DNA of 43,003 nt from the NCBI GenBank assembly GCA_964440225.1, contig CAYTRM010000001.1:1-43003 (forward strand), in the 5' to 3' direction. The notes below the pieces were generated by a model, which did not search any database, had not been told where the DNA came from, and worked only from the letters and a program-made list of their open reading frames with translations. Position numbers and translations under genes: made by a program. The DNA comes from an uncultured Thermoleophilia bacterium (GTDB taxonomy: Bacteria; Actinomycetota; Thermoleophilia; UBA2241). This document shows positions 4,493-42,160 of this stretch, piece after piece. Position 1 is the first letter of the stretch. Every line of letters starts with the position of its first letter.

Positions 4493-5884
4493 ATGCCTCA
4501 TCACGCGGTGCCTCGCTTCGTGGCTTCCACGACCTGGGATCAGCTGCCCGACGATGTCCGGGAGCGCGCCAGGCTCTGTACGCTGGACAACCTCGGGGCC
4601 ATGCTCTCCGGGCTGGCGGCGCCGTCGGCAGCCATCGCCGCAGGCACCGCAGGCCGGCTGTGGGGCGGCGACGAGGCCACGGTCGTCAAGAGCGGCGTTC
4701 GCGCAAGCGTGGCAGGCGCGGCGTTCGCGAACGCCGTGGCGGCGAACGGGACCGACATCGACGACTGCGGTGTCTACACGCTCGGGCATCCCGGGGCGCA
4801 GATCCTGCCGGCCGCGCTCGCCCTGGCCGAGCACGGCTCGCTGCCGGGGCACGCCCTGCTGCGCGCCACCGTCGTCGGCTACGAGGTGGCCTTTCTCGCC
4901 GGCCGCTGCGTCCACGACTCCGAGACCTACTACTACCGCTCCTGCGGATCGTGGGGGTCGCTCGCCTGCGCTGCCGTCGCCGCCAACCTGATGGGGCTCG
5001 ACACGGAGGCGACGGCACACGCACTGGGCATCGCCGAGTATCACTCGCCGTACGCGCCCATGTTCCGCGACGTCGACGCGCCGGCGATGGTCAAGCATGC
5101 CTGTGGCTGGGGCGCGGCGACGGGCGTGACCGCCGCCGTCCTTGCGGCACAAGGGTTCACCGGCTGCCCCAGCATCCTCGAGGACGAGAAGTACCGCGGC
5201 TGGGTCGACGACGTCGGCAGACCCTTCCTGATCACCACCGGCATCATGTGGAAGAAGCACTCCTGCTGCGCGTGGACTCATCCGGCGCTCGATGCTCTCG
5301 AGGAGATCCTGCGACGGCAGCCGGTCGCGGCGGACGACGTGCGCCGCATCCGCGCGGTGGTCTACCGCGATGCCGTGCGGCTGGGCCTCAGACAGCCGGA
5401 GACGACCGAGGAGGCGCAGTTCAACCTCGCCTGGCCGCTCGCCGTGCGCCTCGTCGACGGCGAGGTCTCCCCGGCGCAGGTGCTCGAGCCGCGGCTCGGC
5501 GATCCACGCGTGCGCGCTCTCGCGGCGCGCGTGGAGATGGAGGAGTCGGAGGAGTTCACGTGGCTGTACGACCTCAGCTGCGACGAGGACCCCGAGGGCG
5601 CCGACATGGCACGAGTGGTCCTGGAACTCAGGGACGGCACGGTGCTCGACTCGGGACCGGTGCACTCGGATGTCTATCCCGACCATCCCTGGGGTCGCGG
5701 CGAGCTTGCCCGTAAGTTCCGCTGGCTGGCGCGGCCGCTGCTTCCCGGGGCGACCGTGGAGCAACTCATCGAGATGGTCCTGCGCCTCGACGAGGTCGAG
5801 GACTCACGCGAACTCCTCCGCGTCATCAAGGCCGGCCTGAGGCCGGAACAGGCTGAGCGGCATCACACCAAGGGGGACACATGA
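4493..5884 (+). CDS. MmgE/PrpD family protein, paralog 1
   Basis: ATG 1 nt after the MttB-A stop. MPHHAVPRFVASTTWDQLPDDVRERARLCTLDNLG..., NGTDIDDCGVYTLGHPGAQ, TTEEAQFNLAWP. Collinear with the 16793..18181 protein over its full length. Confidence 0.85.
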   Translation: MPHHAVPRFVASTTWDQLPDDVRERARLCTLDNLGAMLSGLAAPSAAIAAGTAGRLWGGDEATVVKSGVRASVAGAAFANAVAANGTDIDDCGVYTLGHPGAQILPAALALAEHGSLPGHALLRATVVGYEVAFLAGRCVHDSETYYYRSCGSWGSLACAAVAANLMGLDTEATAHALGIAEYHSPYAPMFRDVDAPAMVKHACGWGAATGVTAAVLAAQGFTGCPSILEDEKYRGWVDDVGRPFLITTGIMWKKHSCCAWTHPALDALEEILRRQPVAADDVRRIRAVVYRDAVRLGLRQPETTEEAQFNLAWPLAVRLVDGEVSPAQVLEPRLGDPRVRALAARVEMEESEEFTWLYDLSCDEDPEGADMARVVLELRDGTVLDSGPVHSDVYPDHPWGRGELARKFRWLARPLLPGATVEQLIEMVLRLDEVEDSRELLRVIKAGLRPEQAERHHTKGDT

Positions 5885-6336
5885 GAGCGACGATCCACGC
5901 CGATCCGCCCCACGGCGTCGCGGCTCTTGACGCGCTCGAACGACCGGGCGTCGACCCCCGCCGCGTGGCGATCGCCCACACGGACGCCGAGATCGACGTG
6001 ACCTATCAGACGGCGTTGGCCGAGCGAGGAGCCTTCGTCGAGTGCGATTGCATCGGCTGGGAGGGGGCGGCGCGGACCGGGGCCGACCAGGGAACGTCCG
6101 CGGATCACATGCGGGTGGAGGTCGTGGCATCCCTGCTGGCCGCGGGGTTCGGCGACCAACTCCTGCTCTCGCAGGACGTCGTCACGCGCATCCAGCTCAC
6201 GGCCCACGGCGGGGGAGGCTACGCGTACTTGCTGCGCGACCTGCCTCCGCTCTTCGAGGAACACGGAATCCCGCGACACCTGCTGCACCGGCTCGTGACC
6301 GACGGGCCCGCCCGCTGGCTGGCTTGGGGCCACTGA
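5881..6336 (+). CDS. Phosphotriesterase-related (PTE/Php, amidohydrolase superfamily) protein, C-terminal half only (truncated or remnant)
   Basis: 151-aa ORF starting with an ATGA overlap on the PrpD-1 stop. ATIHADPP..GVDPRRVAIAHTD...LLLSQDV...GGGGYAYLL matches only the second half of ~300-aa PTE-family proteins. The N-terminal HxH metal site region is absent. Confidence 0.55.
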   Translation: MRATIHADPPHGVAALDALERPGVDPRRVAIAHTDAEIDVTYQTALAERGAFVECDCIGWEGAARTGADQGTSADHMRVEVVASLLAAGFGDQLLLSQDVVTRIQLTAHGGGGYAYLLRDLPPLFEEHGIPRHLLHRLVTDGPARWLAWGH

Positions 6337-6477: not shown

Positions 6478-8337
6478 ATGAATCGTCCCAGAGCGGCTTG
6501 GATCAGGACATCCACCATGGCCTTTGCGATTGCGCTGTCGGCGGCGCTGCTGACGCTCGCTCTGAGCGGCGCCGCGCTCGCCGGCTCGCCGTCGCCCGCC
6601 ACCGCTTCCTCGCCGGCCGCCGCGTCGCCGTCGAGCGGCCCGCTCACCTATCGCATCGGGATCGCCCAGGACGTCGTCGACGGCATGAATCCGTTCAGCT
6701 CCCAGAGCGGGATCGCGTGGGAGAGCTTCCGCCTCGGCTACAACTTCCTCACCTGGTACGACGCCGACTACAAGCCCGTGCCCGACGCCGCCGAGAGCTG
6801 GGAGGTCAGCCCGGACGGCCTGCGCTGCACCTTCCACCTGCGCCCGGGCCTCATGTGGAGCGACGGCCGGCCGCTGACCGCGCGCGACGTCGCCTTCACC
6901 TACAACCTGATCCTGAAGACGGAGCACTGGATGTACATCCAGTACCTGGTGGGCGTGACCAGCGTGACGGCGCCCGACGACGCGACCGTCGTGATCGTCT
7001 CGAAGAAGCCAAGCCCCGGCATGCTGGCGCTGTACATCCCGATCCTGCCCGAGCACGTCTGGAGCAAGGTCGATCCCGACAAGCTCGACTACTTCAAGAA
7101 CCTGCCCATGGTGTGCTCCGGCCCGTTCCGCGTGACCGAGGTCAAGAAGAGCCACTGGGCGACACTCGAGGCCAATCCGGACTACACCGAGGCGCTCGGC
7201 GGGCCGCCCCGCGTCCAGACCGTGCGCTTCGAGATCTACCAGACCCCCGAGACCATGGTCGCCGACTACAAGGCCGGCAACCTCGACTCCATCAGTTCGT
7301 TCACGGCCCTCGACTACAAGACGCTCAAGGGCATGCCGGGTACGACCGTCGACGCAGGGCCGTCGATCGGCTTCCACCAGCTCAGCTTCAACTGCTGGGA
7401 CTCGCCCAAGTCCAACGGCAACCCGCTGACGCGTGACGTCAGCGTCCGCCAGGCGGTCGCGTGGGCGATCGACAGGGAGAAGATCAATTCGATCTCCATG
7501 GGCGGGCTCTCCACGACGGGTGCGGCGATGTTCGGGCCGGCCCAGCCCTACTGGCAGTGGACGCCGCCGGCCGGCGAGGCCTACGCGTACGACCCCGAGA
7601 AGGCCAGGCAGATCCTCGATGCCGCCGGCTACGTCGACGGCGACGGGGACGGCGTGCGCGAGGCGCCGGACGGCGAGCCGCTCATCCTCCGCCTCGTCGC
7701 CCTGAACGAGTACCCGGAGGACGTGAGCGCCGCCAAGATGATCGTGGCGTGGTGCCGAGACGTCGGCATCAAGCTGAAGCTCGACCTGATGGACGAGGGC
7801 GCCTTCACCGACCAGTTCTACGACAACGCCGACTACGACCTGTTCATCTGGAGCTGGGGCGGCGACATCGACCCTGGGTTCATGCTCTCCACCTACACCA
7901 CCACGCAGATCATGAACAACAGCATGAACCAGTACTCCAACCCGGAGTACGACGCCCTGTTCGACGAGCAGGCCCAGGCTCTCGACGCTCTCAGCCCGGA
8001 CGACAGGAGCAAGCGGCAGGCCATCGTCTTCGAGATGCAGAGGATCATTCACCGCGATTGCCCGGATATCGTGCTCTGGTACAACGTCAACCTGGCGGCC
8101 TACCGGACCGACCGATGGACGGGGTACGTGAGGGCGCCCGGGCCGGAAGGCGCTCCCTTCTGGAACATGATCCGTGCGACCTACCAGGACGTGCAGCCGA
8201 ACGTGGCGACCGAGGACGCCGCGGTCGCCGGCTCGTCGGCGACGGTGTGGATCGTCGCCGGCGTCGCCGTCGTGATCGCCGTCACCGCCGTCGTCCTGCT
8301 GCTCCGGCGGCGTCCGCATGCGGTGGAGGACGAATGA
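6478..8337 (+). CDS. ABC-transporter substrate-binding protein, family 5 (peptide/opine/nickel type), signal peptide plus C-terminal TM anchor (SBP1)
   Basis: GAAGGAG RBS before ATG 6478. N-terminal signal peptide (..LALSGAALAGS..) without a lipobox Cys. Family-5 core (WSDGRPLTARDVAFTYN, ILPEHVW, GSGPF). C-terminus SSATVWIVAGVAVVIAVTAVVLLLRRRPHAVEDE. Confidence 0.85.
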   Translation: MNRPRAAWIRTSTMAFAIALSAALLTLALSGAALAGSPSPATASSPAAASPSSGPLTYRIGIAQDVVDGMNPFSSQSGIAWESFRLGYNFLTWYDADYKPVPDAAESWEVSPDGLRCTFHLRPGLMWSDGRPLTARDVAFTYNLILKTEHWMYIQYLVGVTSVTAPDDATVVIVSKKPSPGMLALYIPILPEHVWSKVDPDKLDYFKNLPMVCSGPFRVTEVKKSHWATLEANPDYTEALGGPPRVQTVRFEIYQTPETMVADYKAGNLDSISSFTALDYKTLKGMPGTTVDAGPSIGFHQLSFNCWDSPKSNGNPLTRDVSVRQAVAWAIDREKINSISMGGLSTTGAAMFGPAQPYWQWTPPAGEAYAYDPEKARQILDAAGYVDGDGDGVREAPDGEPLILRLVALNEYPEDVSAAKMIVAWCRDVGIKLKLDLMDEGAFTDQFYDNADYDLFIWSWGGDIDPGFMLSTYTTTQIMNNSMNQYSNPEYDALFDEQAQALDALSPDDRSKRQAIVFEMQRIIHRDCPDIVLWYNVNLAAYRTDRWTGYVRAPGPEGAPFWNMIRATYQDVQPNVATEDAAVAGSSATVWIVAGVAVVIAVTAVVLLLRRRPHAVEDE

Positions 8338-9671
8338 GCCGGGCGGGCAGTGCTCAGACGTCGCCCGGCCCCGCGATCGGCGACGGCTTCGAACTGCTTG
8401 CGGCCGGAGACCTGATCTCTTCGCGCCCGCTCGCGTCCAGGCTCGCGCGCGACCCCGCCTTCTCCGACGTCGCGCGTCTGCTCGGCGAGGCGTCGCTGGC
8501 GGTCGGCAACATGGAGACGTCGATCCTCGACCTGCGCGCGTTCGGCGGTCACCCGCGCACCGTCGACGACTGGTGCATGGCCGCCCTCCCCGCCGTCGCC
8601 GGGGACCTCGCCGGTCTGGGCTTCCGGCTCGTCTCGCGCGCCAACAACCACTGCTGCGACTGGGGCATCGAGGGGATGCGCGAGACCGGCCGGCATCTCG
8701 ACGCGGCCGGGATCGTCCATGCGGGGACCGGAGAGACGCTGGCACACGCCCGCGCGCCGCGCTACGTGGAGACGGAGCACGGGCGTGTCGGGCTCGTCTC
8801 CGCCTATGCGGCGCAGAAGTGGGACAACGACGCCGCGCTCGACCAGTTCGGCGAGGCGCCGGCGCGTCCGGGCGTGAGCGCCCTTCGCATCGCCCTCACG
8901 GCGACGGCCCCGAAGCCCGTGGTCGACGGCCTGCGAGACGTCTACCGCAAGGCCTATCCGGGCTCGGCCGACCCCGGCGACGGCGCGCTCACCATCTTCG
9001 ACACGACGTTCATCGATGGCGAGGCGACCGCCGTGCGCTGGGCGCCGGACCCCGCCGACGTCGCCGAGGTGCTGCGCAGCGTACGCCTCGGCGCCCAGCA
9101 CTCCGACCTGCTCGTCGTCTCCCTGCACGTGCACGAGGAGGAAGGGAGCGCCGCGCAGCCGCCGGCCTTCCTCGTCGACCTGGCGCACGCCGCCGTCGAG
9201 GCCGGCGCCGGCGCGGTCTTCTGCCACGGCTCGCACGTGCTTGGACCCGTCGAGATCCGCCGCGGTCGGCCGATCTGCTACGGCCTCGGCAACTTCTTCT
9301 GGTCGGACATCCAGGAGTGCCTCCACGGGGCGCTCCATGCGGCCGCCCGGGCGCGGTTCGGCGACGCGCTCGGCGACCCGGCGATGGTGACCGACGCCGA
9401 CGTCAACCGGGCGTTCAACGCGAGCGAGTTCGCGGACTCCCGCTACTTCGAGTCGGTGCTCGTGGAACTCACGTACGCAGGCGGCGACCCCGCCGTGCGT
9501 CTGCTGCCCGTCGACCTGCGCTACGGCACACCGCTCACCGAGAGCGGCACGCCGCGGTTCGCCGCCGAGAGCACCGCGCGGGCGATCGTGGAGCGGCTCG
9601 ACCGCATGTCGCGGCCTTTCGGCACGGCGGTCGAGCTGCGGGACGGAGTCGGTCGTGTCTTGTCGGCCTGA
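8334..9671 (+). CDS. CapA family protein (PGA_cap, metallophosphatase-like), paralog 1
   Basis: ATGA overlap with the SBP1 stop. GNMETSI and SRANNHCCDWGIEGMRETGRHLDAAGIVHAGTGE fit the CapA pattern. Highly similar to 15429..16796. Confidence 0.85.
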   Translation: MSRAGSAQTSPGPAIGDGFELLAAGDLISSRPLASRLARDPAFSDVARLLGEASLAVGNMETSILDLRAFGGHPRTVDDWCMAALPAVAGDLAGLGFRLVSRANNHCCDWGIEGMRETGRHLDAAGIVHAGTGETLAHARAPRYVETEHGRVGLVSAYAAQKWDNDAALDQFGEAPARPGVSALRIALTATAPKPVVDGLRDVYRKAYPGSADPGDGALTIFDTTFIDGEATAVRWAPDPADVAEVLRSVRLGAQHSDLLVVSLHVHEEEGSAAQPPAFLVDLAHAAVEAGAGAVFCHGSHVLGPVEIRRGRPICYGLGNFFWSDIQECLHGALHAAARARFGDALGDPAMVTDADVNRAFNASEFADSRYFESVLVELTYAGGDPAVRLLPVDLRYGTPLTESGTPRFAAESTARAIVERLDRMSRPFGTAVELRDGVGRVLSA

Positions 9672-9746
9672 GGCTGCGGGGCGCCACCCCGAGATGAGTT
9701 CCCCGTCCGAGGGAGTGGCCCGCCGTATCGCACTCGAGGAGGGTGC

Positions 9747-11015
9747 GTGAGCATGGGGGGGTTCCGCAGCAAGTCCGTGGTGCTCGTCGTGGTGCCGGTG
9801 ATCCTGCTCTTCGCCGGGCTGCTTCTGGGGCTGGTGGGCACGGGCTGCGCCAGGCAGGCCGGCCCGCCGCAGGCCCCGCCGGTGCAGGCCACACCCGTGG
9901 CCACGCTCTCTCCGGCCGTCCCGTCGACGATCGACGACGTGTCGCCGGCCGGCCTCGACGCCTACATCAAGGCCAAGATGAAGGTCGCGCACGTGCCGGG
10001 CCTGGCCGCGTGCGTCGTCTCTGACGGCGAGATCGTCTGGGCCAAGGGCTACGGTTGGGCCAATGTCGAGAAGCGCCGTCCCGTCACGCCCGATACCGGC
10101 TTCATGCTCGCCTCGATCTCCAAGACCCTCGTCGCTACGGCGGTGATGCAGCAGGTCGAGGCCGGCACCCTGTCGCTCGACGCGGACGTCAACACCTACC
10201 TGCCGTTCCCGGTGCGCAATTCCAAGCATCCCGACGATTCGGTCACGCTCCGTCAGCTGCTCACCCACACCTCGAGCGTCCGCGACCACTCCCCGGTCTG
10301 GGACGGCCTCTACACGTACGGGGAAGACTCACCGGTCCCGCTCGACGACTTCCTCGAGGGTTATCTCACGTCCGGCGGGAGCTACTGGGACGAGAAGGAC
10401 TACTCCCGCTTCGCGCCCGGCGAGAACTACGAGTACTCGAACGTCGGCGCCGACCTGGCGGCCTACGTCGTCGAGTCCGCCACAGACATGCCCTTCGACC
10501 AGTACTGCGCCACGCAGGTCTTCGCGCCGTTGGGCATGAACGCCACGTCATGCAAGCTCGAGGGTCTCGACCGCAGCGCTCTTGCCATGCCGTACCGGTA
10601 CGCCTCCGGCTCCGGAAAGTACCGTGCCTACGGACACTACAGCTACCCCGACTACCCTTGCGGTCAGGCACGTTCGAGCGTCTCCGAGCTCGGGCGCTTC
10701 CTTGCTTCGTACACGAGTGACGGGACCTACCAGGGCGTGCAGCTTCTCAAGCCCGAGTCGGTGGCCGAGATCCTGCGCCCGCAGACCTCTCTGTACAAGG
10801 GGCAGGGTCTGGCCTGGTACCGCGAGAAGGTCGGCGGGCCGAAGGTGCTCGGGCACCAGGGCGGCGACCAGGGCGTCTGTACGTTCATGTTCTTCGACGA
10901 GAAGACCGGCGACGGCGCAATCGTGCTGACCAACAGCGACGTGTCGACGTGGAAGGAGTGGTACGCGGTCGAGGACGTGTTCGCGAGGCTGATCGCCGAG
11001 GCGCCACGACTCTGA
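9747..11015 (+). CDS. Serine hydrolase (beta-lactamase family) with N-terminal membrane/secretion signal
   Basis: GAGGAGGG RBS. Start at GTG 9747 or ATG 9753. Hydrophobic N-terminus VVLVVVPVILLFAGLLLGLVGTGC. SxxK motif ASISKT. Confidence 0.85.
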   Translation: MSMGGFRSKSVVLVVVPVILLFAGLLLGLVGTGCARQAGPPQAPPVQATPVATLSPAVPSTIDDVSPAGLDAYIKAKMKVAHVPGLAACVVSDGEIVWAKGYGWANVEKRRPVTPDTGFMLASISKTLVATAVMQQVEAGTLSLDADVNTYLPFPVRNSKHPDDSVTLRQLLTHTSSVRDHSPVWDGLYTYGEDSPVPLDDFLEGYLTSGGSYWDEKDYSRFAPGENYEYSNVGADLAAYVVESATDMPFDQYCATQVFAPLGMNATSCKLEGLDRSALAMPYRYASGSGKYRAYGHYSYPDYPCGQARSSVSELGRFLASYTSDGTYQGVQLLKPESVAEILRPQTSLYKGQGLAWYREKVGGPKVLGHQGGDQGVCTFMFFDEKTGDGAIVLTNSDVSTWKEWYAVEDVFARLIAEAPRL

Positions 11016-11075
11016 AGACTCCTCGTACGTGCGCGGTTTGAAGAGCGTGGTTCGCGAGGCTCTGATCAGGGAAGC

Positions 11076-13106
11076 CTAGCAGCCGTCCCGCGGGATGGTG
11101 GTCTCCCACATCCGGGTCGCCACCCGTTCGTCGTCTTGGTAGGCGTCGAGGCTGCAGGTCACGTGAAAGTCAGACTCGTCCGAGGTCAGCCGGCTCTTCG
11201 CCTCGACCCTGGCCCGCCAGTCGCCTCTCTCGCTCGCGAACGCCCACGACGAGGTCGCCTCGGCCGACAACGGATCGCCCTCGACGATCGCGTAGGTGTC
11301 GCGTCCGCGATACTCATGGACAAGTCCGTCCGCCAGGCGGAAGCGGCCCGATTCGTCCCACACCGATTCGATCCGTCCGCTGGCGGGATCGTGTGCGATG
11401 ACGATCTCACTGATGTCCTCCTCAAGCTGCTCGTAGCCGGGGAGGGGAGCCTCTTCGGGCTCGAGGAAGGCCGGCGGCGCTACGTCGCCCGCTGCCGAGC
11501 GCTCCGGCAGTTCCAGCCGGCTCTCGCCAGAAAGAAGCGTCATCGTCACGGGGTGCGGAGATGGCCATGCGAGTGGCCACAGGCTCGTCGAGAGTGCCAG
11601 CCGCAGGCGGTGCCCCGGTGGGAAGGAGTAGGCGGCGGCTGCCAGCGGCACTGCGACGCGGTAGCGTGTGCCGGGCGCGAGCGGTCGTGGCGCTGCGTGG
11701 CTCACGCGGTGCGTGAGGTTGAGGACGCCGCGGGCGACCAGCGTCGAGGCGCCCGCCTCGTCGACGTCGCAGAGCCGCGCCGCAATGAGCGCCTGAGGCT
11801 GGTCGCAAGCGACGTCGAGTATCGCTTTCGCCTGCCCCAGGATCTCGAGGCGCTCGGCGAGCGGCGGCGAGTCGAAGACCTGGGAGCGTTCGTCGTCGGG
11901 GCGCTGGTCGCCGGGCGAGTCGTCGTCGCACGACCACGAGATCCAGCAGCCTCCCTCGATGCCGGTCGTCTGCGGGCTCCGGAAGGTGACGGCTGACGGT
12001 ACTGTCGGCCGTTCGTCGAGCCCGATCGGCCCCGCGCCGAGCCCGTCCTGCCCAATCGTGAAGGCGCGGACCGTGACGTTCGCTGAGGGCCAGGAGTCCT
12101 CTGTGAGCCACCTGCCCGTCTTGTCGTTCCAATCCTGGTCGCGCGTGTAGGCGTCCTGCATCCAGAAGGTCGCGGCGGGTTCGTCCATGATCCCCGTATC
12201 GATGCCCTTCAACCAGTGGTCCCACCAGCGCAGCGCTTCTTGCAGGAACCCGATCGGCGGCCCGGGATGGCCGCTCTGCGGCCGGGAGTGACACCAGGGA
12301 CCGACGAGCGCCTTGATGGGCCCGCGGTAGTGTTCGAGCATGCGCAGGACGGCGTCGCGATAGCCGTCGGCCCAGCCGCCGACCATGTAGACGGCGCAGT
12401 CCAGAGCGGCGTAGTCCTCGCAGACCGAGGCGTGCCGCCAGTAGTCGTCGCGGCGCTGATGGGAGACCCAGGTCGGTAGCGCGGGGGTAGCGGCGTCGAG
12501 GCGCTCCCGCCACATCTCCTTCCAGCGCTCGCCGACTATGGCCGGATCGGGCGCATGGGTCGCGTAGCCGAACAGCATCGTCGCGTACGACTGCATCTCG
12601 GGCCCCATCAGGCAGCCGCCGATGTAGTGCTCGTCGTTGGCGTAACGGTCGTCGGTCGAGCACATCGAGACGACCGCCTTGAGCGCCGGAGGTCTGCGAG
12701 CGGCGACCTGTAGGCCGTTGAAGCCGCCCCAGGAGATGCCGATCATGCCGACGTTGCCGTTCGACCACGGCTGCCCGGCCAGCCAGGCGATCACTTCGAC
12801 GCCGTCGTCCTGCTCCTGCCTGGTGTACTCGTCCCAGAGGAGCCCCTCGGAGTCGCCGGTACCCCTGATGTCGACACGCACGCCGGCGTATCCGTGCCCG
12901 GCGAAGTACGCGTGCTGACCGGCATCCAGCGGCAGGGAACCGTCGCTCTTGCGATAGGGGAGGTACTCGAGGATCGCCGGCACCGGGTCCGTCTCTGCGT
13001 CTTCGGGGAGCCAGATCTTCGCCGAGAGCCGGCAGCCGTCGGAGAGGGGGATCCAGACGTGGTCGAGCAATCTCACGCTGCGAGAAAAGTCAGTCCTGAT
13101 GTTCAT
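11076..13106 (-). CDS. CocE/NonD family alpha/beta hydrolase (S15 peptidase-like), full length
   Basis: 694-aa ORF. The better start is the internal ATG at 13106 (MNIRTDFS..) preceded by GGAAAGGA. GISWGG nucleophile elbow. C-terminal beta-sandwich-length extension typical of the family. Confidence 0.85.
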   Translation of the reverse strand: MNIRTDFSRSVRLLDHVWIPLSDGCRLSAKIWLPEDAETDPVPAILEYLPYRKSDGSLPLDAGQHAYFAGHGYAGVRVDIRGTGDSEGLLWDEYTRQEQDDGVEVIAWLAGQPWSNGNVGMIGISWGGFNGLQVAARRPPALKAVVSMCSTDDRYANDEHYIGGCLMGPEMQSYATMLFGYATHAPDPAIVGERWKEMWRERLDAATPALPTWVSHQRRDDYWRHASVCEDYAALDCAVYMVGGWADGYRDAVLRMLEHYRGPIKALVGPWCHSRPQSGHPGPPIGFLQEALRWWDHWLKGIDTGIMDEPAATFWMQDAYTRDQDWNDKTGRWLTEDSWPSANVTVRAFTIGQDGLGAGPIGLDERPTVPSAVTFRSPQTTGIEGGCWISWSCDDDSPGDQRPDDERSQVFDSPPLAERLEILGQAKAILDVACDQPQALIAARLCDVDEAGASTLVARGVLNLTHRVSHAAPRPLAPGTRYRVAVPLAAAAYSFPPGHRLRLALSTSLWPLAWPSPHPVTMTLLSGESRLELPERSAAGDVAPPAFLEPEEAPLPGYEQLEEDISEIVIAHDPASGRIESVWDESGRFRLADGLVHEYRGRDTYAIVEGDPLSAEATSSWAFASERGDWRARVEAKSRLTSDESDFHVTCSLDAYQDDERVATRMWETTIPRDGC

Positions 13107-23094: not shown

Positions 23095-24906
23095 ATGGAC
23101 GTCACGAGAAAGCTGTCGACCTGCCTGTTGCTCGCGGCTGCGCTGCTCGCGGCGGGTTCGATCTGGGGACCAGCGGTGTCGTTCGCTCAGAGCTCGCCGC
23201 CGGCGAGCACCGGCAAGGTCGTGCTGAAGCTCGGCCTTCCGGCCGACGCCGACTCGCTCAATCCGTGGATCGGCTACTTCGGCCTCTGCTACGAGGTCTG
23301 GAGCCTCAACTACGACTTCCTGGTCAACCATGATCCTGAGGGCAACCCGGCCCCCGGCCTGGCCGAAAGCTGGTCGACGTCACCCGATGGCCTCACCTGG
23401 ACGTTCAAGATCCGCCAGGGAGCCAAGTGGCACGACGGTCGGCCGGTGACGGCCAGCGACGTGGCGTTCACCTACAACCTCATCATCCAGAAGGAGATCG
23501 ACTCGTACACGCCCTACGTCAAGAACATCGAAGAGGCCGTGGCGGTCGACGACTCCACGGTCGAGATCCACTGCTCCGCGCCCAAGGCGAACATGCTCGA
23601 CCTCTGGATCTACATCCTTCCCGAGCACATCTGGAGCAGGATCGACGATCCCGTCAACCACAAGATGACCTATCCGATCATCGGGTCGGGCCCCTTCCAG
23701 TGCGTCGAGTGGAAGAAGGGGAGCCACATCAAGATGGTCAAGGTGCCCGGCTACTGGGGCGGCGAGCCGACCCTCGACGAAGTCTCCTACGAGATCTACA
23801 CCAACACCGACACGATGGTGATGGACCTCAAGTCCGGGATCATCGACGGCGCCGAGGACGTCCCGCCGGCGCAGTACGCGTCGCTCTCCGAGACCGAGGG
23901 CTTCACCGCCACCGGCCTGAACATGTACACGTTCGAGTACCTGAGCCTCAACTGCTACGGGGAGCCCACCTCGCTGGGCCACCCCGCCCTCAGAGACGTG
24001 AGGTTCCGCCAGGCGCTTCACTGGGCCGTCGACAAGCAGAAGCTCGTCGACCTCGGCCTGGCCGGCCACGGACGTCCCGGGACGACGATCTGCCCGCCCG
24101 ATGAGTGGCCGCCCGGGCGTGACCCGCACTACGAGCCCACCGCCGAAGAGGCCTACGGCTTCGACATCGCCAAGGCCAACCAGCTGCTCGATGCGGCCGG
24201 CTACGCCGACTCCGATGGCAACGGCATCCGCGAGTACAAGGGCAACGACATCGAGCTGCGCCTCTGGAGTCGCAGCGAGTCGCAGTCCAGCCAGATGGAG
24301 GGCAAGCTGATCGCCGGCTGGTTCAAGGAGTGCGGCCTGAGGATCGACTACTCGGTCGTCGACGAAGGCGTCTTCAACGATGCGGTCTGGAACTACAAGG
24401 GCGACGACTACGCGCCCGACTACGACATGCTGCTGTGGGATTGGCCGGGCTACCTCGATGCCGGTGACACGCTCTCCTGCCTCACGACAAGCCAGATCGA
24501 GTGGTGGAACGACTGCTGCTGGTCGAACGCCGAGTTCGACGAGCTCAGCGACCAGCAGTACGGCGAGATGGACGTGCCGACCCGTATGGACATGCTCAAG
24601 CGCATGCAGCAGATCATCTACGTCGAGTCGCCCTACATCGTGCTCACCTATCCCGACGCGTTGGAGGTCAACAACACCGCCAAGTGGGAGGGCTGGGTCC
24701 TGTACCAGGGCAAGGGCCTGCCCTGGTTCAACTCCCTCAACATGGACACCTACCTGAAGCTCAAGCCCGTAGCCGCCGTCGAGGGCGAATCGGGCGGGAC
24801 CAGCACCACCACCTGGATCATCATCGGCGTGGTCGCCGCCCTCCTGGCGATCGTCGTGATCGTCCTTCTCGCCCGCCGCGGCAGGGGCATGGCGGTCGAG
24901 GAGTGA
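23095..24906 (+). CDS. ABC-transporter substrate-binding protein, family 5, signal peptide plus C-terminal TM anchor (SBP2)
   Basis: GGAGAAAGGA RBS before ATG 23095. Signal peptide ..GPAVSFAQS. WHDGRPVTASDVAFTYN, ILPEHIW, GSGPF. C-terminus GGTSTTTWIIIGVVAALLAIVVIVLLARRGRGMAVEE. Confidence 0.85.
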   Translation: MDVTRKLSTCLLLAAALLAAGSIWGPAVSFAQSSPPASTGKVVLKLGLPADADSLNPWIGYFGLCYEVWSLNYDFLVNHDPEGNPAPGLAESWSTSPDGLTWTFKIRQGAKWHDGRPVTASDVAFTYNLIIQKEIDSYTPYVKNIEEAVAVDDSTVEIHCSAPKANMLDLWIYILPEHIWSRIDDPVNHKMTYPIIGSGPFQCVEWKKGSHIKMVKVPGYWGGEPTLDEVSYEIYTNTDTMVMDLKSGIIDGAEDVPPAQYASLSETEGFTATGLNMYTFEYLSLNCYGEPTSLGHPALRDVRFRQALHWAVDKQKLVDLGLAGHGRPGTTICPPDEWPPGRDPHYEPTAEEAYGFDIAKANQLLDAAGYADSDGNGIREYKGNDIELRLWSRSESQSSQMEGKLIAGWFKECGLRIDYSVVDEGVFNDAVWNYKGDDYAPDYDMLLWDWPGYLDAGDTLSCLTTSQIEWWNDCCWSNAEFDELSDQQYGEMDVPTRMDMLKRMQQIIYVESPYIVLTYPDALEVNNTAKWEGWVLYQGKGLPWFNSLNMDTYLKLKPVAAVEGESGGTSTTTWIIIGVVAALLAIVVIVLLARRGRGMAVEE

Positions 24907-26345
24907 AGACGCGGATCGAGGTCCTGGCACCCGACGAGCGGGCGCAGGTGCACGAGCGTTCGTTGCACGTGCTCGAGAAGGTGGGTATGCGCGTCGACAC
25001 GGCCGTCGGCCGCCGCATCCTGGAGAACGTGGGAGCCCTCGTCGATGAGTCGACACGCATCGTGCGCTTCCCCCACGCGCTGGTCGAAGAGCTTCTGGCG
25101 CTGGCGCCGCGACGATTCTCGCTGGGCGGGCGGCGGCCCGGCTGGGAGTTCCCGCTCAACGCCGGTGAGTCGACCATGTGCCTCGACGGCGGTCCCACGA
25201 TGGTCCTCGACCGGCACTCGGGAGAACGCCGGCCCAGCACGCGCGCCGATTGGCTCGAGGCGATCCGGCTCAGCGACGCCGTCGACGAGATCGGCGTGCT
25301 CTGGTCGCCGGTCTCGGGCTGGCTCCCCGACAAGAGCAGGACCTCCTTCGTCGACTACGCGGCCGGCATGCAGCGGGCCTTCTCCAAACATGTGCAGGAC
25401 TCGTTCGATGATCCCGTCGAAGCGCGCTGGCAACTCGAGGTCCTCGAGATCGTCTTCGGCGGACGCGACGAAGTCCGCCGTCTGCACCCGTACTCGTTCC
25501 TGACAACGCCGGTCTCGCCGCTGGTCATCGAGAAGGCGGGCACTGAAGCCTGGCTGGCGCTGCGCGGCTACGACATCCCGCTGGCGATCATGCCCATGCC
25601 GCTGATGGGGGCGACCGCCCCGGGCAGCATGCTGGGCACCACGCTGCTGGCCAATTGCGAAGTCCTGGGCGTCATCTGTCTGGCGCAGGCCGCCGAGCCG
25701 GGCACACCGATCATCCATGCGCCGACTCTGGCGACCATTGACCCGCGCAGCGGACGCCTGGCCGACAACGCACCCCAGGCCGCTCTCAACATCGCCGGCG
25801 TGGAGATGGCACGCTACTACGGCCTGCCGGCCATGGGGTCGGGAGGCGGCACCGACGCCTTCGCGCCCGGTATCCAGTCCGGGTACGAGGGGACGTTCGG
25901 TACCGTGCTCGGGGCGCTGGCCTGGCCCGACGTCATGGTCGGCCCCGGCGGGCTGGCAGGGTCGACCATCTTCAGTTTCGAGCAGACCCTGGTCGACGTC
26001 GAGATCTGGCGCCTGTGCCGCAAGGCCCACGCCGGCATCGAGGTCGCCGATGACCGCTGGCTCACCGAGGCGCTGGAGCGCGTCGGCCCCGGCGGCCAGT
26101 TTCTCTCCGAGAAGTCGACGCGCGTCAACGCGCGCTCCGGCGAATGGCACTTCTCGCAGCTGGGCTGGCACGATTCCTGCGACGCCTGGACGGCGGCCGG
26201 CTGCCCCGATGCCCTCGATGGGGCGCGAGAGAAGGTCGACGCGATCCTGGCGGCCCATCAGCCGCTGCCGCTCGGCGAGGACGTCGAAGGCGCGCTGGCC
26301 GAGCTCCGCGACCGAGCCCTGCGTCACGACGGGGGTTCGTCTTGA
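24903..26345 (+). CDS. MttB-superfamily (non-pyrrolysine) protein, paralog D
   Basis: GTG start overlapping the SBP2 stop (GTGA). VKTRIEVLAPDERAQVHERSLHVLEKVGMRV aligns with the N-termini of the other paralogs. LAIMPMPLMGATAP and VGPGGQFLS. Confidence 0.8.
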   Translation: MKTRIEVLAPDERAQVHERSLHVLEKVGMRVDTAVGRRILENVGALVDESTRIVRFPHALVEELLALAPRRFSLGGRRPGWEFPLNAGESTMCLDGGPTMVLDRHSGERRPSTRADWLEAIRLSDAVDEIGVLWSPVSGWLPDKSRTSFVDYAAGMQRAFSKHVQDSFDDPVEARWQLEVLEIVFGGRDEVRRLHPYSFLTTPVSPLVIEKAGTEAWLALRGYDIPLAIMPMPLMGATAPGSMLGTTLLANCEVLGVICLAQAAEPGTPIIHAPTLATIDPRSGRLADNAPQAALNIAGVEMARYYGLPAMGSGGGTDAFAPGIQSGYEGTFGTVLGALAWPDVMVGPGGLAGSTIFSFEQTLVDVEIWRLCRKAHAGIEVADDRWLTEALERVGPGGQFLSEKSTRVNARSGEWHFSQLGWHDSCDAWTAAGCPDALDGAREKVDAILAAHQPLPLGEDVEGALAELRDRALRHDGGSS

Positions 26346-40300: not shown

Positions 40301-42160
40301 GTGACCCATTCACGACGCGTTCATCCGTTACTCATCCTGCTCGTCGTCGCGGCGGTGGCCGTGTTAGGTCTTGTGTGGGCCATGGACGCGGCCGGGTCGG
40401 AGGAGGCCTCGCCGGCCGCGGCCGACACCGGCAAGGTCGTCTACAAGGTCGGGTGGAACGGCGATCCCGACAACATCAACCCGCTCATCGGCTACACGTC
40501 GCCGGCGTTCGAGATCTGGTACCTCACCTACGACTCGCTCGTCGGGTACGACCCGGCCACGCTCGCCCCGATGAAGGGTGAGGAGTCCACCGGCCTCGCC
40601 ACCGAATGGTCGGTGAGCGACGACGGGCTCACGTGGACCTTCACCATCCGCGAGGGCGCCACCTGGCACGACGGTGTGCCGCTCACCGCCAAGGACGTGG
40701 CGTTCACCTACAGCTACATCATCGACAACGAGATGGAGAACTGGACCGCGTACACCAACCTCATCGAGACGGCGACGGCGGTCGACGACACCACCGTGGT
40801 GTTCGAGTGCTCGAAGCCCAAGCCGGACATGACGCGCCACTACGTGCCGATCCTGCCGGAGCACGTCTGGTCCAAGATCGACCCGAAGAAGGCGGTACGC
40901 GGCTACTCGAACGACCCGCCCTACATCGGCTCCGGGCCGTTCAAGGCCATGGAGTGGAAGAAGGACTCGCACGTCAAGCTGGTCGCCAACCCCGACTACT
41001 GGGGCGGCGCGCCCAAGATCGACGAGCTCTACTGGATGTTCTTCACCAACGTCGACACCATGCTGCAGGACCTCAAGTCCGGCAACATCGACGGCTGCGT
41101 GGATCTGCTCGCCGGCCAGCTCAAGCAGCTCGAGAACGAGCCCGGCATCGAGGCCAGCGCCATCGCCATGGACGGGTTCAACGAGCTGGGCTTCAACTGT
41201 TACAAGGACGGCCCCAGCAAGGGCCACCCGGCGCTCAAGGACTGGAAGTTCCGCCAGGCGCTCAACTGGGCGGTCGATCTGCAGAAGGCGGTCGACGTGG
41301 TGTGGCTCGGCTACACGGCGCCGGGCTCGACGATCATCCCGCCGGACTACTACAGCGACCCCGACTGGCACTGGGAGCCGCCGGCCGACGTCAAGTACAG
41401 CTACGATCCGGAGAAGGCAGGCGCGGCTTTGGACGCGGCGGGCTACCCGGACTCGGACGGTGACGGCGCGCGTGAGTACAAGGGCAAGCCGATCGAGCTC
41501 GGGCTGATCTCCCGCTCCGAGTCGCCGGAGAGCCAGCAGACGGCCAAGCTCATCGCCGGCTGGTTCCAGGATGTGGGCATCAAGGTCAACGTCGAGGTCA
41601 TGGACGAGGCCACGCTCACCGACAACCACCTGCTCAACTACGACGGCGACACCTTCACGCCCGACTACGACATGTTCCTGTGGGGCTGGTACCTCGACTT
41701 CGACCCGGGCTCGATGCTGAGCTACTTCACCAAGGCCCAGATCGAGAACTGGAGCGACTGCGCCTGGTGGGATCCGGAGTACGAGGAACTGTACGTCAAG
41801 CAGGGCGAGGAGCTCGATCCGGTCACGCGCAAGGAGTACATCGACCGGATGCAGCAGATCCTCTACGAGCAGACGCCCTACATCGTCACCGACTACGGCC
41901 CGGACTTCGAGGCCTACAACACCGAGAAGTGGGAGGGCTACATCGCCATCCCCGACCCGAACGGCAACCGGCTCATGCCGCCGTTCGGCAACTGCGGCAA
42001 CGCCAACTTCCTGAGCATCGGTCCGAAGACCGCGGTCGCGGCCGAGGAGAGCAGCGGCGGCAACACGACGCTGTGGGTGGTCATCGGCGTCGCGGTCGCC
42101 ATCGTGGTGATAGTGGCCGTGCTGCTCCTGCGCCGCCGGCCGCGCGCGACGGAGGAGTGA
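40301..42160 (+). CDS. ABC-transporter substrate-binding protein, family 5, N-terminal signal/anchor plus C-terminal TM anchor (SBP3)
   Basis: AAAGGGGGGGA RBS before GTG 40301. WHDGVPLTAKDVAFTYS, ILPEHVW, GSGPF. C-terminus SSGGNTTLWVVIGVAVAIVVIVAVLLLRRRPRATEE. Confidence 0.85.
   Translation: MTHSRRVHPLLILLVVAAVAVLGLVWAMDAAGSEEASPAAADTGKVVYKVGWNGDPDNINPLIGYTSPAFEIWYLTYDSLVGYDPATLAPMKGEESTGLATEWSVSDDGLTWTFTIREGATWHDGVPLTAKDVAFTYSYIIDNEMENWTAYTNLIETATAVDDTTVVFECSKPKPDMTRHYVPILPEHVWSKIDPKKAVRGYSNDPPYIGSGPFKAMEWKKDSHVKLVANPDYWGGAPKIDELYWMFFTNVDTMLQDLKSGNIDGCVDLLAGQLKQLENEPGIEASAIAMDGFNELGFNCYKDGPSKGHPALKDWKFRQALNWAVDLQKAVDVVWLGYTAPGSTIIPPDYYSDPDWHWEPPADVKYSYDPEKAGAALDAAGYPDSDGDGAREYKGKPIELGLISRSESPESQQTAKLIAGWFQDVGIKVNVEVMDEATLTDNHLLNYDGDTFTPDYDMFLWGWYLDFDPGSMLSYFTKAQIENWSDCAWWDPEYEELYVKQGEELDPVTRKEYIDRMQQILYEQTPYIVTDYGPDFEAYNTEKWEGYIAIPDPNGNRLMPPFGNCGNANFLSIGPKTAVAAEESSGGNTTLWVVIGVAVAIVVIVAVLLLRRRPRATEE

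Follow-up and report, generated by a model that had tools for sequence, protein, structure and literature searches.

What holds a substrate-binding protein at the cell surface when it lacks a lipid anchor, and which transporter does it serve when no transporter gene lies beside it? These questions are raised by a 43,003-nucleotide stretch of DNA from an uncultured Thermoleophilia bacterium of the Actinomycetota (assembly GCA_964440225.1, contig CAYTRM010000001.1), referred to in full length as the window. It encodes three family-5 substrate-binding proteins (SBPs) of the ATP-binding cassette (ABC) transporter type, SBP1, SBP2 and SBP3 (Table 1), which share a C-terminal tail. A sequence-only reading of the window had offered two explanations: C-terminally tethered orphans serving a distant transporter, or substrates of an unrecognised sorting or processing system. 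The first is supported by comparative evidence, namely the mutual exclusion of tail and lipobox, tailed homologues adjacent to opp genes and the conservation of orphan status. The second is not borne out, the tail being confined to one family, lacking a fixed outer motif and passing no curated sorting cut-off. At a probability of about 0.75, we judge SBP1–3 to be type-I (N-out, C-in) membrane-anchored SBPs of the Opp/Dpp class (family 5, cluster C), and orphan paralogues that feed an Opp-type translocator encoded elsewhere.

All three frames are stop-free over the lengths given in Table 1, and their translations and PF00496 matches agree with the family and the C-termini first reported. Scores against SBP_bac_5 (PF00496) are 284.7, 282.5 and 296.1 bits for SBP1, SBP2 and SBP3, respectively, compared with a gathering cut-off of 32.4. 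No NCBIfam equivalog cut-off is reached by any of the three; the best match is Opp4A, at 175–198 bits against a cut-off of 650. Pairwise identity of 39–41 % marks them as paralogues, and public records already annotate these proteins as ABC binding proteins. An AlphaFold2 model of SBP1, built on 52 homologues (mean pLDDT 85.8, pTM 0.80), contains a confident bilobed globular domain at approximately residues 57–574. In Foldseek this domain matches AppA, NikZ, NikA and DppA at E-values of 1e-38 to 1e-35; the best match, AppA (1xoc; E 1.4e-38, TM-score 0.84 on the target), identifies an OppA/DppA/NikA-like bilobed fold, and a PDB sequence search recovers the same relatives. Assignment of a ligand from these solved homologues was rejected. 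The best PDB relatives are 20–24 % identical, with ligands as diverse as peptides, nickel chelates, chitin or mannan oligosaccharides, and sialic acid.

Calls of signal and transmembrane (TM) segments draw on the AlphaFold2 model, on hydropathy and on inspection of the sequences. At each N-terminus a basic n-region is followed by a hydrophobic h-region and an A-x-A-like site; in SBP1 this Sec-type signal covers approximately residues 1–36. In agreement with the sequence-only reading, inspection of the three N-termini reveals no lipobox ([LVI][ASTVI][GAS]C at the end of the h-region); the Cys at residue 10 of SBP2 is upstream of the h-region and is not a lipobox. A ribosome-binding site, GAAGGAG, is located 7 nt 5' of the SBP1 ATG.

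The tail common to SBP1–3 consists of a Gly/Ser/Thr patch, a hydrophobic helix of approximately 20 residues (Kyte–Doolittle means 2.9–3.5 over 19 residues) and an RR(R)…acidic end. In the SBP1 model, a linker at 578–591 with pLDDT below 50 leads into a helix at 589–610, and the end, 611–619, is unstructured. The patch, helix and Arg cluster of the tripartite tail originally described are therefore present, but its fixed Trp is not: of the genome's 13 complete tails, six contain Trp, which was rejected as a motif element. GG occurs in eight of these 13 tails and N-x-[ST] in five; GG was rejected as a GlyGly-CTERM signature, there being no model match. At least two acidic residues are found among the last five in all 13.

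Conservation along the protein was measured as mean pairwise identity across 115 homologues of SBP1. It is 0.69 in the binding domain and 0.57 in the cytoplasmic decapeptide, and falls to 0.35 in the patch before the TM helix, 0.32 in the helix itself and 0.29 in the signal peptide. The outer patch thus diverges as fast as the signal peptide, and conservation within the tail is concentrated on the cytoplasmic side, an argument for retention of the tail. The same picture emerges from a wider set of 43 tailed binding proteins of other species, approximately 30–40 % identical in the domain, in which no outer-patch position exceeds 56 % (G or S). The layout in this set is a helix of approximately 21 residues, RRR (81–98 %), three or four small residues and a terminal [DE][DE]R[EA], with a cytoplasmic end of 10–11 residues in 34 of the 43. 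This end takes the form RRRP[RKH]AVE[DE]x here and RRRxxxA[DE][DE]RE in Streptosporangiales and Kribbella.

The window spans contig C1 completely; no other of the 612 contigs is longer in this metagenome-assembled genome (MAG) of 3.18 Mb, which is 79 % complete. The MAG contains 24 SBP_bac_5 matches, each of which was extended to read both ends of its frame. At least 13 are tailed family-5 binding proteins with Sec-type signals and without a lipobox, encoded on contigs C1 (three), C2, C10, C34, C44, C52, C83, C87, C125, C152 and C295. A hidden Markov model (HMM) of the tail, built from 120 homologues and searched against the 27,952 six-frame open reading frames (ORFs) of the genome, matches family-5 binding proteins only at E < 0.003; this proteome-wide check, which the sequence-only reading had proposed, recovers no unrelated membrane proteins. 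A broader tail HMM (genome plus 85 loci) matches 64 binding proteins, together with 12 weak non-SBP matches that are internal TM segments. Among 1,726 stop-terminated ORFs that are confidently coding, 36 have a TM helix with a basic cluster at the C-terminus, and 14 of these 36 are tailed binding proteins. The others lack the acidic end in every case and mostly resemble the last helices of polytopic membrane proteins. A general sorting signal would place the same tail on several unrelated families of the genome, and this is not found.

The relationship between tail and lipobox is informative. Of the tailed proteins, 40 lack a lipobox and two have a lipobox-like string; of those without a tail, 26 have a lipobox and 24 do not (Fisher p = 6e-7, for kin that are non-independent). 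These counts are approximate, as the automatic classifiers for tail and lipobox miss some borderline cases. Tail and N-terminal lipobox are mutually exclusive alternatives, which points to a membrane-anchoring role for the tail. The statement that actinobacterial SBPs are normally lipoproteins holds for the other family-5 SBPs of this genome: a Tat-type signal with a lipobox at its end is present on each of the untailed proteins of C8, C24, C77 and C232. Permease genes adjoin those of C8, C77 and C232, and none was detected on contig C24. Since the lipoprotein-type SBPs have twin-arginine-type signals (on C8, C24 and C77, e.g. MTRRQLLVRGSVLGLSATALGSLLSACGS) and the tailed SBPs have Sec-type signals, the anchoring routes also differ in predicted export pathway. 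The genome encodes Lgt, and its sequence indicates that the organism uses both routes, lipid and helix. In an Anaerovoracaceae MAG of the Bacillota (L008), an SBP at 9923–11557 that is a tree neighbour of the SBP1 group lies beside oppBCDF and has a lipobox, MAGC, and no tail. This suggests a transfer with an anchor swap, in which case the two anchors may be interchangeable.

The best 120 database homologues (at least 54 % identical, each approximately 600 residues long) are all tailed, except two with aberrant ends. A homologue scan restricted to one genome per species yielded 80 loci, or 85 with five from assembly look-ups, and in these 85 the tail is present on 47 of 94 family-5 binding proteins. 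The tail is found in MAGs assigned to Rubrobacter and, among cultured organisms, in Kribbella, Nonomuraea, Streptosporangium, Sphaerisporangium, Nocardiopsis, Saccharothrix, Glycomyces and Streptomyces; almost every tailed gene in these carriers immediately precedes oppB-oppC-oppD-oppF. In a maximum-likelihood tree of domain-only columns, with the tail removed before alignment use, the tailed proteins fall in one clade of 74 rows (starred support 99). Eleven 'no-tail' rows within this clade are mostly threshold misses or truncated frames, and one is a true lipoprotein, from a Bacillota MAG. The tail appears to have been inherited together with the domain inside one actinobacterial clade. In four members (L101 and L102 of genome G001, L006:6734 and L013:5634), an unrelated Arg/Pro-rich end replaces the tail; these ends are probably 3'-end frameshifts or assembly errors rather than true tail loss.

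Gene context divides the clade. All four members of subclade a (Rubrobacter-like) and all 30 of subclade b (Streptosporangiales, Kribbella, Streptomyces, Nocardioides) are permease-adjacent, with no clear orphans and no short flanks, so that outside this lineage 34 of 34 tailed homologues are directly beside oppBCDF. Subclade c1, the SBP1 group, has six members: three permease-adjacent operon copies (L001, L002 and L091), two clear orphans (SBP1 and its orthologue in L003) and one, on C152, with too short a flank. Subclade c2, to which SBP2 and SBP3 belong, has 33 members, none of them permease-adjacent; 20 are clear orphans and 13 have a short flank.

The reported lack of an ABC permease or ATPase gene in the window is upheld by three approaches: Pfam scans of approximately 30 window ORFs contain none, the genome-wide matches to PF00528 (BPD_transp_1) and PF08352 (oligo_HPY) include none on contig C1, and tblastn of OppB/C/D/F against the window gives nothing at E ≤ 1e-3. 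As the window is an entire contig, sequence beyond it had to be judged in relatives. An SBP1 orthologue, 84 % identical, is found with the trio of SBP, overlapping CapA and beta-lactamase genes intact (L003–L005), and within 10 kb on either side there is no ABC gene on these contigs of 67–79 kb. With no permease-adjacent member in c2 either, the suspicion that cognate permease genes might sit just outside the window is answered for these relatives. SBP1 and SBP2 are overlapped by cytoplasmic enzyme genes, as had been noted (Table 1), and such stop–start overlaps of orphans with downstream genes are conserved. Orphan orthologues that are 59–96 % identical persist in congeneric genomes, where their neighbours are unchanged. 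Orphan status is thus real and evolutionarily conserved, and the orphans look functional in their intact frames, GC content at third codon positions (GC3) of 0.92–0.95 in SBP1–3 and conserved overlaps. Enzymes beside other orphans of the MAG include MttB, an S-Me-THD-like protein, Amidohydro_3, saccharopine dehydrogenase, an alpha/beta hydrolase and an aldo/keto reductase fused to a ferredoxin domain.

SBP1–3 are not encoded with OppBC permeases and OppDF ATPases; the nearest paralogue group of SBP1 is. In L001, L002 and L091, and in the 98 %-complete congener G002, a canonical operon runs in the order pterin-binding protein, S58 peptidase, oppB, oppC, oppD, oppF, tailed SBP, mttB, AAT and amidohydrolase, and on long contigs of relatives its tailed SBP is 57–60 % identical to SBP1. 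The MAG copy of this operon is split over three small contigs: C449 contains oppB, oppC and oppD (84 %, 69 % and 80 % identical to L002), C487 contains oppF and the N-terminal part of the SBP, and C295 contains the SBP C-terminus with the tail, followed by mttB. In G002, one of the six tailed SBPs examined is in an operon and the other five have at least 7.5 kb free of permease genes on both sides; all four untailed binding proteins adjoin Opp/permease genes.

Binding proteins also exceed translocators in number. The MAG has 24 SBP_bac_5 and five OppC_N matches, and 12 congeneric genomes have 7–32 and 4–7 per genome, respectively; eight genomes from other families of the class, with 1–7 and 1–6, are near 1 : 1. 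This lineage thus has more binding-protein genes than translocators, with the orphans encoded apart. Taken together, the SBP surplus, the conserved orphan status and the presence of a same-tailed paralogue in an opp operon make several SBPs per translocator the most economical explanation.

In addition, family-5 SBP genes, whether tailed or of lipoprotein type, repeatedly adjoin non-pyrrolysine MttB-superfamily genes (window 3046–26345; C34, C109, C295, C8, C24 and C77; L001, L002, L087, L091 and L095). This association suggests uptake of N-methylated amines or peptides that may feed MttB-type demethylation.

The following mechanism is proposed. Signal peptidase I would remove the Sec-type signal and the binding domain would fold extracellularly. 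The C-terminal helix would then act as a stop-transfer anchor, with the Arg cluster holding the cytoplasmic side and the tail retained. The Gly/Ser/Thr patch may serve as a flexible tether, possibly glycosylated; PMT-like glycosyltransferases are encoded in the genome. In this way the tail would replace the N-terminal lipid of other Gram-positive binding proteins. The window genes are orphan paralogues of a lineage-specific radiation, and each lies within, or is translationally coupled to, a gene cassette for cytoplasmic catabolism (CapA, MttB, PrpD and other enzymes). Most probably, each orphan would capture the substrate of its cassette and pass it to an Opp-type translocator encoded elsewhere, for which the best candidate is the oppBCDF set whose own same-tailed SBP belongs to the nearest paralogue group of SBP1.

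Several points weigh against this interpretation. Signal cleavage and tail retention are deduced from sequence, the shared translocator of SBP1–3 is a candidate only, and the MAG is fragmented as well as incomplete. A basic cluster is required of a plain stop-transfer anchor, but neither constant length nor acidic residues at the terminus are; here, 9–11 cytoplasmic residues keep their length and charge across proteins approximately 30 % identical in the domain, and this end is better conserved than the linker or the helix. Many relatives have a loose G-G-S-(N/S)-T-(T/G) patch ahead of the helix. Finally, one of ten relatives' tails, that of L018, reaches the sorting model GVDTG_CTERM, at 29.3 bits against a cut-off of 29. 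The protein concerned, from an uncultured Actinomycetota (SBP at 9743–11854), has the tail …SSSSSNTGFLIG…RRRATTGDRE; many clade-b tails share a loose G-G-S-N-T-G patch, and the L018 match appears to be a loose resemblance. A literature search for GVDTG returned unrelated papers only.

One way to account for the conserved cytoplasmic end is that its 9–11 residues, presented via the TM helix, form a docking element for OppBC, OppDF or a co-encoded enzyme. This is a speculative addition that we consider improbable. If true, many interchangeable helix-tethered receptors would plug into one translocator, a modular, non-covalent counterpart of ABC importers with a permease-fused binding domain.

An unlikely alternative, yet the one that survives best, is that the orphan tailed SBPs feed no transporter at all, acting instead as ligand sensors or enzyme partners, either by signalling across the membrane or by recruiting CapA or MttB to it. 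The lack of nearby ABC genes across a whole subclade, the stop–start overlaps that tie SBPs to cytoplasmic enzymes and the conserved decapeptide would all fit such a role. Against this, the operon-encoded SBPs beside oppBCDF have the same tail and cytoplasmic motif, so that the tail is not orphan-specific. Moreover, a signalling domain of 9–11 residues would be short, neither sensor kinases nor chemoreceptors are consistent neighbours, and one permease with several SBPs is an established arrangement.

A tripartite sorting signal, at which an unrecognised sortase-, rhombosortase- or archaeosortase-like enzyme would cut near the patch and attach the SBP to the wall or a lipid, is distinctly less probable. 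Its layout of patch, TM helix and basic cluster is that of the tail, and the similarity was pursued by scanning the three window tails and those of ten relatives against NCBIfam and Pfam at permissive E-values. With two exceptions, the matches are sub-threshold and to the TM-plus-basic regions of many unrelated sorting models. GVDTG_CTERM (NF058571) gives 19.4, 15.8 and 18.3 bits for the SBP1, SBP2 and SBP3 tails in hmmscan, below its cut-off, and a whole-genome search with this model yields no match above it; over both searches the window tails lie at 14.5–19.4 bits. The L018 score just over the cut-off, the first exception, is a point in favour of sorting. LPXTG_anchor (TIGR01167) gives 13.9, 15.9 and 14.9 against a very low cut-off of 15.9, the tie at 15.9 being the second exception, with alignments that begin only at model position 6 or 9, past the motif, and no LPXTG- or LAXTG-type motif is present directly before the TM helix in the SBP1–3 tails. 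LAXTG/LAETG models show weak sub-threshold similarity, PGF_CTERM reaches 10.8 bits against a cut-off of 24.5, and GlyGly-CTERM and PEP-CTERM are unlisted for the window tails even at E ≤ 10. The earlier remark that the tails contain no known sorting motif therefore stands, in that no curated cut-off is passed by a motif-covering match of the window tails.

The genome encodes one sortase (C370:809–1198) and two ordinary rhomboids (C286 and C22), which counts in favour of sorting; all are on other contigs, none is beside a tailed binding-protein gene, and an exosortase (Exosortase_EpsH) was not found in the MAG, which is 79 % complete. The co-occurring sorting enzyme that the sequence-only reading had proposed to look for was not located with the tails. 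A 127-residue ORF at C79:5956–6336 ends in LAFTG, a TM helix and RRRRA, and is a candidate LAXTG-type (class-E-type) substrate, canonical in form, for the single sortase, which on this assignment is already provided for. Known sorting signals mark many unrelated proteins, whereas this tail is on a single family; its extracytoplasmic patch is poorly conserved, its conserved part is cytoplasmic, and its exclusivity with the lipobox points to anchoring. That the orphans are decaying, functionless remnants of broken transporter operons can be dismissed as very improbable, for although a half-length PTE domain and a truncated SBP1-like fragment on contig C404 show that remnants exist, the frames are full-length with high GC3, orthologues persist beside the same neighbours, the domain is well conserved and the AlphaFold2 model is confident.

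The positions of the three genes, their tails and their immediate neighbours are collected in Table 1.

Table 1. Binding-protein genes of the window, their tail modules and adjacent genes
Feature	Position	Strand	Evidence
SBP1, family-5 substrate-binding protein, 619 aa	6478..8337	+	PF00496 E 1.4e-84; AlphaFold2; Foldseek
SBP1 tail module, residues 575-619: Gly/Ser/Thr linker, TM helix (~589-610), cytoplasmic RRRPHAVEDE	8200..8334	+	Hydropathy; AlphaFold2; tail HMM E 2.7e-13
capA-1 (PGA_cap family), without signal peptide	8334..9671	+	PF09587 E 1e-48; ATG overlaps SBP1 stop (ATGA)
Beta-lactamase-fold hydrolase, third gene of the SBP1-CapA-Bla trio	9747..11015	+	PF00144 E 2.7e-63; conserved neighbour
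SBP2, family-5 substrate-binding protein, 603 aa, between mttB-C and mttB-D	23095..24906	+	PF00496 E 6.9e-84
SBP2 tail module, residues 565-603: ESGGTSTTT, 20-residue TM helix starting with W, RRGRGMAVEE	24787..24903	+	Hydropathy; tail HMM E 7.4e-08
mttB-D (non-pyrrolysine MttB-superfamily methyltransferase)	24903..26345	+	PF06253 E 6e-62; GTG overlaps SBP2 stop (GTGA)
SBP3, family-5 substrate-binding protein, 619 aa, GTG start	40301..42160	+	PF00496 E 5.2e-88
SBP3 tail module, residues 583-619: ESSGGNTT, 20-residue TM helix (LW…), RRRPRATEE	42047..42157	+	Hydropathy; tail HMM E 3e-12
Cation-efflux (CDF) gene, ~160 nt after SBP3, at contig end	42324-42965		PF01545

Across the window as a whole, the Pfam scans recognise four members of the MttB superfamily and two each of the MmgE/PrpD and CapA (PGA_cap) families, as well as S15 peptidases, beta-lactamase-fold hydrolases, an Orn/DAP decarboxylase, a HAD hydrolase, a CDF transporter and regulators of the TetR and RpiR types. 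A type I restriction–modification system with embedded defence genes is also present. The half-length PTE domain, at 5881–6336, is a gene remnant. The beta-lactamase-fold protein of the SBP1 trio carries LVGTGC, which resembles a lipobox, in a hydrophobic signal at its N-terminus and is probably an exported lipoprotein hydrolase. At C404:1310–2664, a truncated SBP1-like N-terminus (88 % identity over 82 aa) runs into PrpD-C-terminal-like sequence and adjoins an S15 peptidase gene whose product is 83 % identical to that of the window. This contig represents either a second, rearranged partial copy of the island or strain heterogeneity in the MAG.

For annotation, these proteins are best read as membrane-anchored ABC SBPs, and not as secreted proteins or sorting substrates; the whole clade will be wrongly localised by any predictor that assumes lipoproteins in Actinomycetota. 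In this soil lineage, whose closest named relatives among the matches are Thermoleophilia MAGs, radiation of the clade has produced many copies without transporters, each beside different catabolic enzymes, often of MttB type. The ligand of an orphan should equal the substrate of its neighbours, which offers a handle on poorly understood enzymes. What remains of interest is the conservation of the cytoplasmic peptide, how large the radiation of orphans is and the link to MttB-type cassettes.

The closest architectural precedent is archaeal. Crenarchaeal SBPs of the Opp class combine a signal for signal peptidase I with a C-terminal TM segment and a Ser/Thr stretch that is glycosylated (PMC3387779); the works cited in that paper include examples from Sulfolobus solfataricus (sugar and oligopeptide SBPs) and Aeropyrum pernix (OppA) (Elferink 2001, Gogliettino 2010, Balestrieri 2011, cited in PMC3387779). 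SBP1–3 likewise belong to the oligopeptide/dipeptide class and have a cleavable-type signal without a lipobox, and a single C-terminal TM segment that is immediately preceded by Ser/Thr-rich sequence and followed by a short basic cytoplasmic end; by sequence, hydropathy and model they combine a predicted signal peptidase I-type signal with this single segment. They differ in being bacterial, in their shorter, Gly-rich patch of approximately 8–15 residues, in the conserved RRR…[DE][DE]x of the cytoplasmic end and in having no transporter genes beside the window copies. The sole archaeal tailed match (L082) is outside the actinobacterial tail clade, and the likeness is one of architecture. A lexical search of open-access papers, whose silence is weak evidence, recovered archaeal reviews and the LocateP class described next, but no description of bacterial C-terminally anchored SBPs. 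The 'C-anchored' class of LocateP, defined by a cleaved signal, a C-terminal helix and a positive tail without LPxTG, has a comparable layout (PMC2375117).

Lipoprotein SBPs of Gram-positive bacteria (Lgt/Lsp) are also tethered to the outer face of the cytoplasmic membrane; SBP1–3 are anchored at the opposite end, by a helix rather than a lipid, and have a Sec-type, A-x-A-like signal in place of a Tat-type lipobox. The C-terminal sorting domains, LPXTG/LAXTG, GlyGly-CTERM, PEP-CTERM, PGF-CTERM and GVDTG_CTERM, share with the tail a short region, a helix and a basic cluster at the C-terminal end. Unlike these, the SBP1–3 tail has no fixed motif, exceeds no curated cut-off, is limited to one family and is best conserved on the cytoplasmic side, the opposite of sortase-type signals, in which the outer motif is the invariant part.

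For the use of several binding proteins by one translocator, the precedent is the pneumococcal Ami permease, an Opp-type permease described in two papers as served by AmiA, AliA and AliB (PMC11192437, PMC11139975). As in that system, paralogous family-5 SBPs outnumber translocators here. The scale is larger: the MAG has no fewer than 13 tailed copies, and family-5 matches reach 32 in a congener, compared with 4–7 for OppC. In addition, a helix takes the place of the lipid as anchor, every orphan lies within an enzyme cassette of its own, and sharing of the translocator is proposed. The genes aliA and aliB are reportedly encoded apart from the ami operon. TM-anchored Opp-class SBPs in Archaea and orphan SBPs that share a translocator are thus known already; what appears to be new is the occurrence of the TM-anchored type in a bacterial, actinobacterial clade.

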